A stretch of 40,004 nucleotides of DNA from a virus. Taxonomy: Duplodnaviria; Heunggongvirae; Uroviricota; Caudoviricetes. Made by a program: the position numbers and the translations under genes. Below, one piece after another: positions 386-5,915 of this stretch. How positions within the stretch are numbered: position 1 is the first letter of the stretch; each line of letters opens with the position of its first letter. Under the pieces are notes generated by a model. That model did no database searches, was not told the origin of the DNA, and saw nothing but the letters and a program-made list of their open reading frames with translations. The DNA lies in IMG/VR virus record IMGVR_UViG_2645727669_000017, one strand, 5' to 3'.

Positions 386-1609
386 ATGGCGTTGTCTGAT
401 GCGTGGTTGCGTTCAGTCGTTGGAAAGGAACGTGATAAGGTTTTGGTTAAATCCGATCGTGATGGTTTGTCTGTCAGAGTATCACCGAAAGGTCGCGTAG
501 TGTTCCAATATCGTTATCAATGGGCAGGGAAAGGCGAGCGCCTTGATATCGGAACTTACCCGGCAACTGGATTAAAAGAGGCCAGAGAAGAAGTTATCCG
601 TCTTCGTGGTGAACTCGAGTCAAACCGCAATCCACGATTGGTCAAGCAGGTAGAAAAACGCAAAGCTACTGAAGCCATGACGGTGGAGTCTGTGATCCGT
701 GCCTGGTATGCAGCATATTGTGTAAAAAATAAAAAAGGCTCTGAGCAGATACTCCGCTCATTTGAACTGCACCTGTTCTCTAAAATCGGGAGTATCCCTC
801 ACGATGTAGCTACATTGCATGATTGGTTAGAGGTCCTGGAGCCTCTTAGCACTAAGACTCCAGCAATAGCAGACCGATTGCTAATTAACGCAAAGCAGGC
901 CCATGTCTGGGCGTATAAGAGAAAGCTCATTGAAACTCGCCCGCTGTCGGATATCACGGGTAAAGATATGGATATCCGTAAAGGTCAGAAGAAACGGTTT
1001 CTGACACATGATGAAATTAAAATCCTTTATGCTGCGATCGATGGTTCTCGAATGGTTCCTAAATACCGGGCCTTCATTAAACTATTGCTGCATTTTGGTT
1101 GCCGTAGTTCAGAGCTAATTACTGCCCGGGTGGACGATTTTGATTTCATTAATAAAGTATGGACTGTACCACCAGAACGACATAAGACTGGGGAGATAAC
1201 AGGCGAACCGCTAAAGCGACCCATTATTGAACCGGTTGAAGAGCTTATAAAGTACGCTATCTCTATGAACAATGGTTCCGATATGCTTTTTACTAAGGAA
1301 GGAAGCTGGGAACCCGTTGGTCGGACATCATTGCAGTCGCTGCCTTACAATTTAATGCAGTACGCATGGCGGCGTTTGGGGTATCAATTCCCTCATTGGT
1401 CTCTTCATGATTTGAGACGAACAGCACGAACAAACTTTTCTGATCTTACTGAGCCTCATATTGCAGAAATAATGCTAGGTCATAAACTGCCAGGGGTATG
1501 GCAAGTTTATGATAAGAGCGATTATCTAGAAGAACAGCGTAAAGCCTACCAGGCATGGTGGGAGAGAGTTGAATCGATTGTTACTTGTACTAACTCATGC
1601 TCCAATTGA
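386..1609 (+). CDS. int: Tyrosine-type site-specific integrase (P4-like, with N-terminal arm-binding domain)
   Basis: 407-aa ORF; N-terminal LSVRVSPKGRVVFQYRYQ motif typical of the integrase arm-binding domain; C-terminal HDLRRTARTN...Y catalytic region; next to the att junction and reading inward. Confidence 0.9.
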   Translation: MALSDAWLRSVVGKERDKVLVKSDRDGLSVRVSPKGRVVFQYRYQWAGKGERLDIGTYPATGLKEAREEVIRLRGELESNRNPRLVKQVEKRKATEAMTVESVIRAWYAAYCVKNKKGSEQILRSFELHLFSKIGSIPHDVATLHDWLEVLEPLSTKTPAIADRLLINAKQAHVWAYKRKLIETRPLSDITGKDMDIRKGQKKRFLTHDEIKILYAAIDGSRMVPKYRAFIKLLLHFGCRSSELITARVDDFDFINKVWTVPPERHKTGEITGEPLKRPIIEPVEELIKYAISMNNGSDMLFTKEGSWEPVGRTSLQSLPYNLMQYAWRRLGYQFPHWSLHDLRRTARTNFSDLTEPHIAEIMLGHKLPGVWQVYDKSDYLEEQRKAYQAWWERVESIVTCTNSCSN

Positions 1610-1642
1610 TACAGTATGCCCAGCCAGTATGTAATCAAATTT

Positions 1643-1690
1643 GGCAGCCTGCTTTGAGCGTAAAGCGAGAGCTGCCATTATTCTTATATT
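1643..1690. terminator. Two-tier hairpin followed by a T-rich tract between the convergent int and the 517-aa gene
   Basis: GGCAGC (1643-1648) pairs with GCTGCC (1671-1676), with inner stem GCTTT/AAAGC; followed by ATTATTCTTATATTT. Confidence 0.35.
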
Positions 1691-1780
1691 TGAACGCTAT
1701 ACGATTAACTTTTTGACTGATAGATCAACTGGGTTCAGGATACCACCTGCAATATAAGCAGGTGATGGATAAATATATCA

Positions 1781-3334
1781 TTATTGGTCAGGATATTTTG
1801 ATAGTTCAACTTCAAAAGTTGAATTTTTGTTTTTTAGAACATGAACAACACCTTTATAAAGTTGCCGTAATTTATTTACTGCATTTATATCAATGGAAGC
1901 AGGGGAGAATGCTCGGATAAGATTGTTGAAGATTTCCTTGGAGTAAGCAGATTTCTTCTTTTTATCAAGAGAGTCCATTCTTTTAATAATGATTTCTAAA
2001 AGATATGTCTTTTGATTGTTATGCATTTTTTCTGAAGTAATAATCAGATACATCATTTCCCCCAAGGTTTTAGAGGCAAAGAACTCTGGAGATTGCTCTT
2101 TATCTTCTGTTGTCCAGTTATCATAATTGAGGTGTTCTGTTGCTCCTGCCCATATATTACAACGGCTGATTAGCTCATATATTAAATAATCAAATCGCAT
2201 GGGGAACTCTCTATTTACATCTATGCTGCTAGATTTTTCATAGCTCTCAAGTATTTCCTTTAGGAAACAACGATAATACATGAGCCACATATTGTTTTTT
2301 GAGCGTTTGAATATTGCTGTAGATACCATAACATCGAAAAACGTCAATCCAACGAAGATTGGGCATTCCCAACGCTCATCACTACTTGAATAGTAATTAT
2401 CTGGATGATTGTAAAAGCAAGAACTCCCTTTTTGTTTTTTTATGTAGCTAATGACATAATTACCCACAGGTTTCCATATTTCTAAATCTATCGCCATGCG
2501 AATATCATTTAAATAAAAATTAAGCAAGGCATTACTTTCGTCGAGTGCATACTCCCCTGTATATGAACGATTTTGGTTGTCTCGTAACTCCCTATACATA
2601 ATGCTGTTTGGGTTAGATATTAAATACGTAAAGAAATTTGTATTATACTCACAATTATATCTAAGCTGTAAGCAGGTGGCCTTCATAGCTACGTGAGGGT
2701 AAGTATCAATTAGATAATGTGAAAAAACCTTTGATTTCAGAAGATTGGATATATTTAATTGAATATCATTTTGTCTTTTGTCTTCATAAGGGAAAAACTT
2801 TGACATAAATCTCCTGACTTTTTTGAATCGTAATTTTTTTACCTTCTCTTCATCCATTTCAATGGGAGATAATGAAGGGGCTAAGTAATTATGTACGCGA
2901 ACATACCATTTTTTATTGCTGATTATATTGAATAGCTGCTCGTGATATTTATCAAAAAGATATCCTAGTTGTTCTATTTTTTTTGCGCGCAGATATGTTT
3001 CTGAAACACTGATCCAACAGGTAAGGTTTGCTTTTGGTAGTATTTTGCCCTGTACTTTAATTCCAAAAAATATAATTATGATACAAAGACAAGTAAAAGC
3101 CAATGTATCTTCGTTAAAACCGAGTATCCAAGGGATCGGTTTTATCGGGAAAACACTTAGCAAAACCTTAGAATATATAACTGTTAATATTGTTGATATA
3201 AAAAAGATAATGAATACTAAATTAAATTTAGATATGCGTAACCTTAAATCAACACGTCTCTCATCCGTTAAGAGAGTATACCAAGCAATAAGTATGACGA
3301 AGACTGCTAGTAAACCATTGGCACCCATTATCAC
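1781..3334 (-). CDS. AT-rich membrane-anchored protein of unknown function (about 3 N-terminal TM helices plus ~420-aa soluble domain); candidate phage-defence or exclusion gene
   Basis: 517-aa ORF; hydrophobic N-terminus (LLAVFVILIAWYTLL, LVFIIFFISTILTVIY, LAFTCLCIIIIFFGI); N/K/I/Y/F-rich composition and visibly low GC versus flanking DNA; AT-rich promoter-like sequence upstream at 3335-3385. Confidence 0.6.
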   Translation of the reverse strand: MIMGANGLLAVFVILIAWYTLLTDERRVDLRLRISKFNLVFIIFFISTILTVIYSKVLLSVFPIKPIPWILGFNEDTLAFTCLCIIIIFFGIKVQGKILPKANLTCWISVSETYLRAKKIEQLGYLFDKYHEQLFNIISNKKWYVRVHNYLAPSLSPIEMDEEKVKKLRFKKVRRFMSKFFPYEDKRQNDIQLNISNLLKSKVFSHYLIDTYPHVAMKATCLQLRYNCEYNTNFFTYLISNPNSIMYRELRDNQNRSYTGEYALDESNALLNFYLNDIRMAIDLEIWKPVGNYVISYIKKQKGSSCFYNHPDNYYSSSDERWECPIFVGLTFFDVMVSTAIFKRSKNNMWLMYYRCFLKEILESYEKSSSIDVNREFPMRFDYLIYELISRCNIWAGATEHLNYDNWTTEDKEQSPEFFASKTLGEMMYLIITSEKMHNNQKTYLLEIIIKRMDSLDKKKKSAYSKEIFNNLIRAFSPASIDINAVNKLRQLYKGVVHVLKNKNSTFEVELSKYPDQ

Positions 3335-3385
3335 CTCTGAATAAGCTACATTTAGACATTCATAAAAAACTTTAATACTATGTAC

Positions 3386-3580
3386 TTATTGTAACAAATT
3401 CTGGGTGTTTTCATCAGAATTATCTGCATCATCCTGCACCATTAATTTTGGTGCTTCGCTGGTGGTATTTGCAACATCTACTTCAGGCACAGAGTAGACA
3501 GTCTGATTAGGTTTAGCTCTGTGCCATAGATGTGTTAACTCACATCTGAACGAATACGTATTACTCAATAACTCCCGCAA
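3386..3580 (-). CDS. Small acidic hypothetical protein downstream of xis (uncertain)
   Basis: 64-aa ORF overlapping the xis-like stop by ~20 nt; no recognisable motif. Confidence 0.2.
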   Translation of the reverse strand: MRELLSNTYSFRCELTHLWHRAKPNQTVYSVPEVDVANTTSEAPKLMVQDDADNSDENTQNLLQ

Positions 3581-3755
3581 ACCTGTATATCTTGCGTGAT
3601 GCCCATTTATTTGGGCAGGATTTAATATCAGGATCTGGGAAGTCAGGCCTGTATTTCTGGCCAGTTCTCCTGTTTACGCTGTTCCAGCGAAGAACTGTCG
3701 ATACTGAAACGCCACAGAAATCAGCGACTTGTTTAGTTGTCATTAAGTTGTTCAT
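3561..3755 (-). CDS. xis: Excisionase / AlpA-family HTH DNA-binding protein
   Basis: 64-aa ORF with TTKQVADFCGVSVSTVLRW HTH and a downstream FPDP...KW motif characteristic of AlpA/Xis-type proteins. Confidence 0.5.
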   Translation of the reverse strand: MNNLMTTKQVADFCGVSVSTVLRWNSVNRRTGQKYRPDFPDPDIKSCPNKWASRKIYRFAGVIE

Positions 3756-4936
3756 TACTTCACCTCCTGCGGCGGCTCCGGTAGCGGCATCCAGTGGGTT
3801 ACTTTCGATGCCGGTTCTTCCCCATTGTCAGTAACTGCCCACCATTTGTTTCTCGAACAATCGTAATACCCTTCGAAGGTATCGCACTCAGTCCAGCCGT
3901 AAGACTTACCCCAACACCAAACATACTGTTTATCGTTCGGCATTCGCTCACTACAGCTTATCCAACCATCCGGAGTTACCGGAGAGTTGCCATTCACAAG
4001 GTCAGCTCGAACATATAGCGTGTCATCATGGTGCTGATTGTGGCTGCACCACGTTAATTCGCTTAACTCGCCATCTTCTGGCCATACTCCAGCTGTTTGC
4101 AGCCAGATATGGGCTGGCGCATCTTGGCAAGGTGTATTAACTGGCAACTTGTAAGTTTGGCTTACAGGTTGGCTACCCTGAAGCATGGCCGCGCGGCAGG
4201 CATTCCACCCCTTCACATAACCGAACGCCATCAACTGATCATTCATGGCGGGCAGCATTGTGTGGGTCGTACTGATTTCCTCCGGCACTACTGGCGATGG
4301 CTGTTTGGCTTCTAAATCAGCAATTCTGTCAACTACGGCATCGACAGCATCTGAAAAACTGAAACAGTTACTCCACTCCGGCCAGTTCCCGGTTGCTGCA
4401 AAGTACATATCTGCTAAAGCAGATTCAGCATGGTCACGCTCGTTAATGAGTTGCTCTTCGCTTTTCTCCAGTTCAGCAATACGCTTCTCTGCGGCTTCTG
4501 CCCTGCATTGTTCCCGTTGGAACATTTTGTGGGTGCGGTCGAGCGCCTCAAGTCTGGCTGCTGATGTTTTCTCTTCTGCTTCAAGCTCAACGCGCAGCTT
4601 CCCAACCGTAAGCGCAATATCCTCGTTCTCCTGGTCGCGGGATTTGATGTATTGCTGGTTTCTTTCCCGTTCATCCAGTAGTGCCAGCGCAACATTTGGA
4701 TTAAAAGCAGCAATAAATTCAGCGTTTGCATAAGCCTGAACATCTGTTTCAATCAGGCAGTTAACATGACATTCCGCAATCACGCCACCGGGTTCTCCTT
4801 TCCATTTTTGACAAACAAAAACTCCTGTTAAATTGCCGTGTTGGTTAACAGATGTATGCCCTACGATGTAGCTTCCTTTAGTTGCTTTCTCTGCCTTTTC
4901 ACGCAGTGCCTGATAGTCAATTGTCATTCTCGCCAT
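3755..4936 (-). CDS. Ea22-like early protein with central coiled coil and C-terminal DUF551-like Cys/Trp-rich domain
   Basis: 393-aa ORF; coiled-coil region (ELEAEEKTSAARLEALDR...); C-terminal WCWGKSYGWTECDTFEGYYDCSRNKWW resembling the DUF551 domain of lambdoid Ea22-like proteins. Confidence 0.55.
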   Translation of the reverse strand: MARMTIDYQALREKAEKATKGSYIVGHTSVNQHGNLTGVFVCQKWKGEPGGVIAECHVNCLIETDVQAYANAEFIAAFNPNVALALLDERERNQQYIKSRDQENEDIALTVGKLRVELEAEEKTSAARLEALDRTHKMFQREQCRAEAAEKRIAELEKSEEQLINERDHAESALADMYFAATGNWPEWSNCFSFSDAVDAVVDRIADLEAKQPSPVVPEEISTTHTMLPAMNDQLMAFGYVKGWNACRAAMLQGSQPVSQTYKLPVNTPCQDAPAHIWLQTAGVWPEDGELSELTWCSHNQHHDDTLYVRADLVNGNSPVTPDGWISCSERMPNDKQYVWCWGKSYGWTECDTFEGYYDCSRNKWWAVTDNGEEPASKVTHWMPLPEPPQEVK

Positions 4937-5550
4937 CCTTCACAGTTGTAATCACTACAGCCTTCAAAATCATATGGGTTGTACTGCCAGGTGATTTTTC
5001 CGCAATGCGGACAATTCCAACGCACCTTCCCGCTTCGCGACTTCTTTCTTCTGTTCTGCTTTTTCAACCAGTCAGGCATGACCAAACCTGCGCCCTGAAC
5101 CATTGTTCTGCGGTTAAAGTTATTGATATTGAACGTCCGGCGCTTTGCTGAATCAGCAATGGAAAATGGCAACCAAACTATTCCTGGTTCGTTTTTGTTG
5201 GCGACGCTAAAGATGGTCGCTTTACTGAAGTCATCTGTTGGCAATCCACCGTGTTGAAGCCAGTAAACATCGTTGCCGTTCCAGCTACTTTTTTTGTAGG
5301 CCACATACGCAGTGCAATCTGGCTCAATCAGGTTTTCTGTAGGGATGTACTGGTAATCAACGTGCCACACAGCCATTGCATCCACGCTATCAGCGCAAAC
5401 AGGCTGATCGATATCTCGACCACAATTCCAGGCTTTTTGGGCTTCTTCCAGCGTGTAAACATGAGCGCGATCGATATTAGAACTGTAACCATTGCCGTTA
5501 TGGCAATGGAATGAAGCGTTATTACCCACAGTTTCACGCAAGCACATCAT
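4924..5550 (-). CDS. Hypothetical early protein with C-terminal Cys-rich zinc-ribbon-like motif
   Basis: ORF 4924..5601; an internal Met (MMCLRE) gives a start that does not overlap the upstream gene; C-terminal CPHCGKITW...CSDYNC. Confidence 0.45.
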   Translation of the reverse strand: MMCLRETVGNNASFHCHNGNGYSSNIDRAHVYTLEEAQKAWNCGRDIDQPVCADSVDAMAVWHVDYQYIPTENLIEPDCTAYVAYKKSSWNGNDVYWLQHGGLPTDDFSKATIFSVANKNEPGIVWLPFSIADSAKRRTFNINNFNRRTMVQGAGLVMPDWLKKQNRRKKSRSGKVRWNCPHCGKITWQYNPYDFEGCSDYNCEGWRE

Positions 5551-5564
5551 GTAAAAGCGGTTAT

Positions 5565-5915
5565 TCACTGGTTGCCTCCTTTGCGAATCTGTTCCGCCCA
5601 TTCTTCAAGGGATTTCTCCGCATATTCACCGGACAGACCATCAATCGGGTGCGGTTCATTAGCCAACTCATCTTTCGCTGACAGAATCATGCGTGTAACG
5701 TCGAAAACTTCACGTAAAGACTTATTGATAAATCCGTGATTGAACGCAGCAGCAAGGCGGCTTGCGGTATAGTTAATACCCTCGTTGCGAGCCTCAGCAC
5801 GTACTTCATCGAATTTACGCACCAGATACTCAGCATTTGTTTCATTCACTTTCAGATCTCGCGGTACACATTTCCCGCGAAGAAACCCTTCCATTTCGAA
5901 AACATTCATGCGCAT
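5565..5915 (-). CDS. Hypothetical early protein (possibly CPS-53 YfdS-like)
   Basis: 116-aa ORF; alternative start at 5909 forms an ATGA overlap with the upstream stop. Confidence 0.5.
   Translation of the reverse strand: MRMNVFEMEGFLRGKCVPRDLKVNETNAEYLVRKFDEVRAEARNEGINYTASRLAAAFNHGFINKSLREVFDVTRMILSAKDELANEPHPIDGLSGEYAEKSLEEWAEQIRKGGNQ

Follow-up and report, generated by a model that had tools for sequence, protein, structure and literature searches.

Several described membrane effectors of abortive infection, among them lambda RexB, the transmembrane (TM) effectors of CBASS and Pycsar, SLATT proteins, Kiwa KwaA and the 2TM effectors of retrons, carry short N-terminal TM modules, are found in defence islands and prophages, and share a working model of membrane disruption or of sensing at the level of the membrane. 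Here we analysed a gene encoding a protein of 515 amino acids (aa) which likewise begins with a short TM module and which lies between the integrase gene (int) and an excisionase-like gene (xis) of a lambdoid prophage, within 40,004 nucleotides (nt) of viral DNA (Caudoviricetes; IMG/VR record IMGVR_UViG_2645727669_000017). This whole stretch is termed the window, and positions refer to it. An original prediction, made from the letters of the window and a list of its open reading frames (ORFs), had put the gene forward as an undescribed defence or exclusion gene. Our follow-up, computational throughout, identifies the gene as horizontally acquired cargo, and suggests that it encodes a protein which acts on its own in anti-phage immunity while anchored in the inner membrane, and whose family had not been characterised before; to this role we give an even chance.

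A gene under purifying selection in a variable int–xis slot

The ORF occupies positions 1781..3334 of the minus strand and comprises 517 aa when counted from a GTG at 3334, the length originally given. The ORF is present as stated, but an ATG at 3328 makes the better start codon and results in 515 aa: the GTG falls within the Shine-Dalgarno sequence (GAGG, just 5' of this ATG) and contributes merely two extra codons, and the 515-aa form is the one annotated in RefSeq, where the exact protein match, WP_032276170.1, is labelled 'hypothetical protein'. At the composition of the ORF, the chance of 515 stop-free codons is ~1e-18, and the ratio of nonsynonymous to synonymous substitution rates (dN/dS) was 0.15–0.21 against the Yersinia, Sodalis and metagenome-assembled genome (MAG) orthologs, a comparison between genera. 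On account of these two values the ORF is not a chance one, but a real gene under purifying selection. Its GC content of 0.326 is clearly below that of the flanking integrase (0.45) and downstream early genes (0.47), as had been noticed from the sequence, and with 0.505 for the whole window it forms the lowest-GC 1.5-kb stretch, ~3.5 standard deviations under the mean. The homologous genes are AT-rich in each host examined (GC 0.28–0.40), including Pseudomonas protegens, a GC-rich host.

The window is a lambdoid prophage whose integration site adjoins yjjG. Within it, the gene is convergent with int and has the same orientation as the xis-like and early-left genes, in agreement with the position originally described. 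A 97%-identical counterpart of the xis-like protein, which is 64 aa long and of the helix-turn-helix (HTH) type, is labelled 'excisionase' in phages cdtI and 2H10, and the int–gene–xis module was also found in phages converting to Shiga toxin (Stx) 1a and 2c. Related prophages either carry the gene at this site or have it replaced by other cargo. In sister prophages with other cargo, homology to the window stops at 1609–1659, directly after the int stop codon, and restarts at 3468–3501, and the variable unit is therefore a cassette of ~1.85 kb.

The gene is carried by 35 of the 5,426 complete E. coli genomes, with one copy each, at least 99.3% identical and always in the slot of the yjjG prophage. 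At a threshold of 90% nt identity, 700 E. coli genomes contain a member of the integrase family. At least six other cargos occupy the same slot, all of them uncharacterised and mutually unrelated. In sister prophages these fillings are 183+62 aa, 150+160 aa, 331 aa, and a 646-aa DUF4365-TPR protein, whose DUF4365 part is nuclease-like and joined to TPR; in named phages they are a 710-aa ORF (orf33) of cdtI and a 377-aa ORF of PhiR63_1. Several independent lines thus support the view that the gene was acquired horizontally, as cargo of a variable slot adjoining the integrase, and the int–xis gap is a cargo hotspot.

Architecture of the protein and conserved residues of its family

Hydropathy and the helices of an AlphaFold2 (AF2) model concurred on the three N-terminal TM helices that had been predicted: TM1 at about aa 5–20, TM2 at about aa 35–55 and TM3 at about aa 76–91. 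The loop following TM1 (loop 1) contains the conserved basic stretch DERRVDLRLR, with a family consensus of PRxxRLxLxLR, and a conserved PWxxGF loop connects TM2 and TM3. As the positive charges are located in loop 1 and directly after TM3, with five basic residues each, the positive-inside rule would place the large domain of ~420 aa on the cytoplasmic side. The AF2 model was confident and all-helical, with a predicted local distance difference test (pLDDT) value of 85.6 and a predicted template modelling (pTM) score of 0.80; a structure search with it yielded generic helical solenoids as the best matches and nothing more specific. A fourth TM helix at aa 322–343 was considered and dismissed: this segment is hydrophobic here, but in a minority of relatives only, and in the AF2 model it forms a confidently placed helix of the soluble domain (pLDDT ~90), so that we treat it as a core helix.

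The profile, structure and PADLOC searches proposed in the original prediction recovered no known family, consistent with its statement that the soluble domain lacks an assignable motif. For the window protein, there were 0 matches in Pfam-A at E<=1 (SLATT, Abi, HEPN, Imm/SieB/Rex and TPR/HEAT included), 0 in NCBIfam at E<=10 and 0 in PADLOC-DB v2.0.0 at E<=10, and neither single-sequence nor profile searches retrieved anything from the PDB sequences. The sole library match was PHROG phrog_13820 (E=6.6e-40 over aa 6–461), which has no function annotated. Homology to a housekeeping or O-antigen modification enzyme, named at the outset as evidence that would speak against defence, was detected by none of the searches made. 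For O-antigen or serotype-conversion genes we looked for GT2, acyltransferase_3 or GtrA domains, 4–11 TM helices and an operon of one to three genes beside att/int; there was no match to these domains and there are three TM helices, so that the genomic position alone is shared. A HEPN (Rx4-6H) or HD-type motif around the conserved His was also rejected, as the Arg is not family-wide, the spacing is wrong and the fold provides no support.

The 515-aa protein belongs to a large family, without relatives of known function or fold. A word-indexed search returned 31 relatives, and an exhaustive profile search matched 754 clusters (50% identity), with E<=1e-30 for 324. Nearly all of the best 150 among these clusters are 500–600 aa in length and match over their full length, and the family spans several phyla. 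None of 40 diverse family members matched Pfam at E<=0.01 (0/40), and against PADLOC these members gave a single marginal match (DruL, E=0.0094). The phrog_13820 group represents a phage-borne branch of the family, and ~20%-identical relatives are held by Klebsiella phage records of 110–120 kb which, judged by their size, are probably phage-plasmids.

Of 148 scanned representatives of the family, 142 have kept the TM module and the other six are probably fragments; among full-length representatives we saw neither domain swaps nor added domains, the insert at about aa 140–200 being the only variable part. Block conservation in TM1 and loop 1 roughly equals that of the soluble core, which argues for a functional membrane module that is more than an anchor. 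The most conserved positions across 159 members are polar or aromatic and reside in the soluble domain: S242, Y245, E247, N251, Q252, Y260, N266, D275, N307, H346, W348, Y351, E374, W393 and D495. Of these, E247 is shared by 156/159 members, H346, embedded in a W-H-M-W-L-x-Y motif, by 155/159, and D495 by 138/159. The polar part of this set looks like a pocket or an active site.

Genomic neighbourhood of the homologs

To describe the genomic company of the family we read the neighbours of homologs on genome contigs, the scan with the narrower alignment giving 9 loci; contigs of the very distant representatives were mostly too short for neighbour reading. An all-versus-all comparison of the ORFs within 3.5 kb, covering 12 loci and the window, revealed no recurring neighbour except integrases. 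The gene is a single-gene unit, and a conserved partner gene, as in a two-gene toxin–antitoxin or sensor–effector operon, was rejected since no neighbour is shared in these 12 loci and the window. In two Vibrio loci (L014:9752-9886, L016:9741-9884), the small ORF just upstream of the homolog is what is left of the C-terminal part of a tyrosine recombinase (…LLGHAKLESTIEYL…). The Vibrio gene hence lies at a decayed integrase junction, and these upstream ORFs were discarded as partner genes.

Beyond integrases, the loci differ in their content. The Pseudomonas protegens homolog is located at an island edge, adjoining an integrase and convergent with it, whereas that of a marine gammaproteobacterium lies between a type I restriction–modification (R-M) system with a ParS/Xre toxin–antitoxin pair and an integrase trio. 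In a P4-like satellite, the homolog follows the primase and adjoins a retron-like pair of reverse transcriptase and TIR genes; a HEPN gene occupies the int end. A Sodalis integrative and conjugative element (ICE) has LmuB_C (Lamassu-type), SMEK_N and ArdC nearby. The Vibrio ouci homolog directly adjoins Hachiman HamA/HamB, that of V. intestinalis is 4 kb from a type I HsdR, and that of Yersinia lies near PDC-S71. On viral contigs, homologs were found at the P2-like moron site between gpS and gpV, with Gin/Cin-type invertase and tail-fibre genes, and with a McrB_N-HNH gene. By raw count, ~8 of 11 independent non-E. coli loci have a known or candidate defence gene no more than 10 kb away. The features on which guilt by association is commonly based, i.e. 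defence systems within ~10 kb, mobile elements and variable hotspots, are thus all present.

Upstream leader

The cassette also carries conserved DNA upstream of the gene. About 140–185 nt of it are shared with the homologs of Yersinia, Sodalis and the MAG, including the extended -10-like sequence TGTTACAAT 59 nt 5' of the ATG. Because this upstream DNA moves with the cassette and is conserved across genera, a putative own promoter of the 515-aa gene is plausible. The AT-rich promoter-like sequence that had been attributed to the gene was not recovered by a consensus promoter scan, which found no minus-strand promoter upstream of the gene and was at chance level overall (10 matches versus 9.5 expected); a terminator scan was likewise at chance level.

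At the right cassette junction, just past the stop codon of the xis-like gene, two strong hairpins can be formed, CAGATGTG-N6-CACATCT(G) and GGCACAGAG-N22-CTCTGTGCC, the second of which recurs 5' of the Yersinia homolog. The folding z-score of the 232-nt leader was -3.4. The junction hairpins have no T-run and no match to an Rfam family. An upstream micro-ORF was rejected as a coding partner, as in the alignment Sodalis lacks a start codon for it and the MAG copy is stopped early.

Earlier computational prediction

The cluster containing this same gene, WP_047661322.1, is listed as 'Predicted novel defense gene' in Table S10 of DefensePredictor, which covers predictions over 3,000 E. coli strains (Science 2026, PMC13092281). 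The mean log-odds of the cluster is 8.35, at a strict cut-off of 4, and it has no HHblits or Foldseek match to known defence proteins; the table gives the score without architecture, family or context (PMC13092281). The gene is outside the 94 cloned transcription units and the 42 validated systems of that study (PMC13092281). One listed member, WP_015740443.1, is a 436-aa fragment of the frameshifted allele; at this locus, O103:H2 12009 also has it annotated. HepS and a serine-recombinase screen, considered as possible earlier descriptions, concern unrelated systems. The gene has therefore been flagged once computationally, and we found no study of it in the literature. The coordinates of the features discussed here are compiled in Table 1.

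Table 1 Features of the window and of compared loci (L and P numbers label compared loci and homologs)
Feature	Position	Strand	Details
Tyrosine integrase	386..1609	+	Arm-DNA-bind_3, Phage_int_M, Phage_integrase; convergent with the 515-aa gene
Variable cargo cassette of the int–xis slot, ~1.85 kb	1611..3500	.	BLAST versus sister prophages
Coding sequence, 515 aa	1781..3328	-	stop codon 1781-1783; start ATG at 3328
All-alpha domain, aa 94-515 (~420 aa), predicted cytoplasmic	1784..3049	-	low-confidence variable insert ~aa 140-200
Codon 495, GTT (Val)	1844..1846	-	Asp in 138/159 family members
Codon 346, AAT (Asn)	2291..2293	-	His in 155/159 family members
Family signature S242-x2-Y245-x-E247-x3-N251-Q252-N ... 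Y260 ... N266 (YRELRDNQNRSYTGEYALDESN)	2531..2605	-	family alignment
N-terminal membrane module, aa 1-93	3050..3328	-	hydropathy and AF2 helices
Upstream leader moving with the cassette	3329..3500	-	Shine-Dalgarno GAGG 3337-3334; extended -10-like TGTTACAAT 3396-3388
Two hairpins at the right cassette junction	3486..3548	-	sequence and folding
64-aa HTH protein, excisionase-like	3561..3755	-	weak HTH_17/MerR match under the Pfam cut-off
Ead/Ea22+DUF551 fusion ORF	3755-4936		early-left region
225-aa ORF, Cys-rich C-terminal region	4924-5601		faint sub-threshold Pfam matches only (DUF7575, Nop10p)
Alternative-cargo loci	L023:6412-7256, L024:6325-7301, L025:6591-7586, L026:6399-8339, L034:5303-7435, L035:3905-5038
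Phage and satellite moron-site loci	L031:5023-8172; L030:2892-7069; L007:7429-15309		gpS-gpV site, invertase/tail-fibre site, P4-like satellite
ArdC loci	L010:6670-7614 (Sodalis ICE); P0087 (plasmid-like contig with ParA)		ArdcN + MPTase-PolyVal, three small genes between

Two further observations concern the flanking genes. Several E. coli genomes in RefSeq, L001, L002 and L020 among them, leave the 64-aa xis-like gene without an annotation; elsewhere it is labelled 'DNA-binding protein' or 'excisionase'. The early-left region beyond it (3755–5807) is strongly mosaic among sister prophages, with homology breaks at about 3991, 4145–4224 and 5807.

Discussion

We infer a defence role at the membrane, which we consider evenly poised between right and wrong, together with a topology and a split of tasks in which one domain senses and the membrane part is the effector. 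According to the proposed mechanism, the three conserved TM helices would anchor the all-alpha domain to the inner membrane on its cytoplasmic side, where the polar set S242, Y245, E247, N251, Q252, N266, D275, N307, H346, Y351, E374 and D495 would recognise a cue or substrate that stems from the phage. The membrane module would then turn this recognition into a loss of membrane integrity, i.e. abortive infection, as the most likely outcome, or alternatively into a local block of the infection, and no partner gene would be required. The abortive, membrane-disrupting sub-mechanism itself we put forward only tentatively. On a more far-reaching view, which we hold to be possible yet doubtful, the protein would be the founding member of a family of at least 750 clusters (50% identity) that provides single-polypeptide immunity with a new all-alpha fold, unrelated to described systems. 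We would be similarly hesitant to assert that, in such a family, a pocket centred on Glu/His/Glu/Asp, being either a new enzyme or a ligand sensor, is wired to the 3-TM module.

The interpretation as a defence or exclusion gene gains from the mobile cargo, the defence-island company and the predictor score, and loses from the ArdC neighbours and the deviant E. coli alleles. Several such points weigh against a defence role. The anti-restriction gene ArdC lies 2–3 kb upstream of the homolog in two distant loci on conjugative or plasmid-like elements (the Sodalis ICE and the P0087 contig); this placement could be a recurring arrangement, and it would also fit an anti-defence or transfer-related role. 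An Acinetobacter locus apparently has ordinary metabolic neighbours, the Pfam matches being pooled over six loci. Expression in the lysogen is putative, the promoter scan being at chance level. No phenotype has been reported: neither the literature searched nor the tables of validated systems mention the accessions or the signature peptide, and the literature search for the PHROG identifier was likewise negative. As for DefensePredictor, its overall validation rate is 45% (PMC13092281), and because its input includes neighbours and GC (PMC13092281), its score is not independent of the context evidence.

The state of the E. coli alleles adds to these doubts. Every E. coli allele has Asn346 in place of the near-universal His, while the Citrobacter ortholog P0002 retains the canonical His. 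Val495 is limited to the window allele and a 100%-identical IMG/VR contig (L032), the other E. coli alleles having Asp. Differences within E. coli are nearly all nonsynonymous: 3/3 of the private differences of the window allele, 10/12 between other E. coli alleles and the window (10 nonsynonymous, 2 synonymous), and 37/54 in a further allele comparison with the window (37 nonsynonymous or indel, 17 synonymous). This near-neutral change fits either relaxed constraint or diversifying selection. Frameshifted or truncated copies (locus L021:4082-5630) occur in O103:H2 12009 and in Stx1a phages, and many members of the cluster are fragments. Since two of the top polar residues deviate and evolution within E. 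coli appears near-neutral, the window copy may be weakened. That it is a weakened or inactive allele heading to loss, whatever the function of the family and independently of the other explanations, is a possibility we regard as doubtful: the majority of the 35 copies in genomes have the intact length of 515 aa, an excess of nonsynonymous changes is also expected from diversifying selection on an immune sensor or from very recent polymorphism, and Asn can sometimes replace His as a ligand.

Three other roles were weighed against anti-phage immunity. Superinfection exclusion at the inner membrane, i.e. blocking genome entry without cell death in the manner of T4 Imm, P22 SieA or HK97 gp15, would suit a prophage-encoded protein that is predicted to lie in the inner membrane and whose gene adjoins int, and the module could contact an ejection apparatus given the conserved TM1 and the PWxxGF loop, which is predicted to be periplasmic. 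Homologs at moron sites within the tail-gene regions of P2-like and other phages point in the same direction. Known exclusion proteins are small and phage-specific, however, in contrast to 515 aa with a large conserved cytoplasmic domain, and the Pfam exclusion families gave no match. The occurrence of the family on conjugative elements, a P4-like satellite and chromosomal islands beside R-M and Hachiman systems is furthermore typical of general defence genes, so that we consider exclusion rather unlikely. The spread over many kinds of mobile element, together with the ArdC loci and the relatives on the large Klebsiella phage records, could instead reflect a benefit to the element other than phage resistance, with the protein acting as an anti-defence or establishment factor, in entry exclusion against related elements, or as a toxin or addiction module. 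The usual anti-defence protein is small, soluble and expressed early, unlike this large membrane-bound one. Moreover, several homologs reside in chromosomal R-M/Hachiman islands where the neighbour scans picked up no mobile-element gene other than integrases, there is no conserved antitoxin-like partner, and the DefensePredictor score is defensive; we judge this explanation to be improbable as well.

A membrane-associated enzyme with a new all-alpha fold that modifies a lipid-linked or envelope substrate, leading to serotype conversion or receptor masking, appears very unlikely. Many int-adjacent prophage genes serve serotype conversion, and in the related prophages CPS-53, P22 and Sf6 the slot holds gtrABC or oac. 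The soluble domain is tethered to the membrane, and its dense conserved polar residues (E247, H346, E374, D495 and several Asn, Gln and Tyr) resemble an active site or ligand pocket. Against an enzyme of this type stand the lack of any likeness to GtrA/B/C, acyltransferase_3, glycosyltransferases or any enzyme fold in the sequence and structure searches, the presence of only 3 TM helices, and a distribution that takes in satellites, conjugative elements and defence islands across very diverse bacteria and extends beyond the prophages of O-antigen-bearing hosts.

If anti-phage immunity is confirmed, a widespread fold-orphan single-gene family joins the bacterial immune repertoire. The polar motif (E247, H346, E374, D495) and the membrane module provide defined targets for mutagenesis, and the E. 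coli alleles without the near-universal His, together with the window allele that also lacks Asp495, constitute a natural experiment. The int–xis gap of lambdoid prophages at the yjjG site, including the Stx1a- and Stx2c-converting phages, is a cargo hotspot for discovery, in which at least seven fillings, all uncharacterised, were counted. As the gene rides on Shiga-toxin phages, it could affect which phages superinfect or displace them in pathogenic E. coli.

Among known systems, the all-alpha domain of the 515-aa protein, with helical solenoids as the best structural matches, parallels the TPR, HEAT or ARM sensor domains of Avs/STAND proteins, and an alternative cargo of the same slot is a nuclease-TPR protein. 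Like the prophage cargo gtrABC/oac it is an AT-rich membrane-protein gene beside an integrase, but it has no homology to these genes, which encode ~10 TM helices and a large periplasmic domain as opposed to 3 TM helices and a predicted cytoplasmic domain. With the membrane effectors of abortive infection it shares no sequence match, and whereas those effectors use a separate sensor or signal partner, the 515-aa protein would combine both functions with no partner gene. Its architecture, as modelled, is compatible with an abortive-infection membrane effector. The protein represents a new family within a familiar category, namely putative defence cargo in a prophage hotspot.

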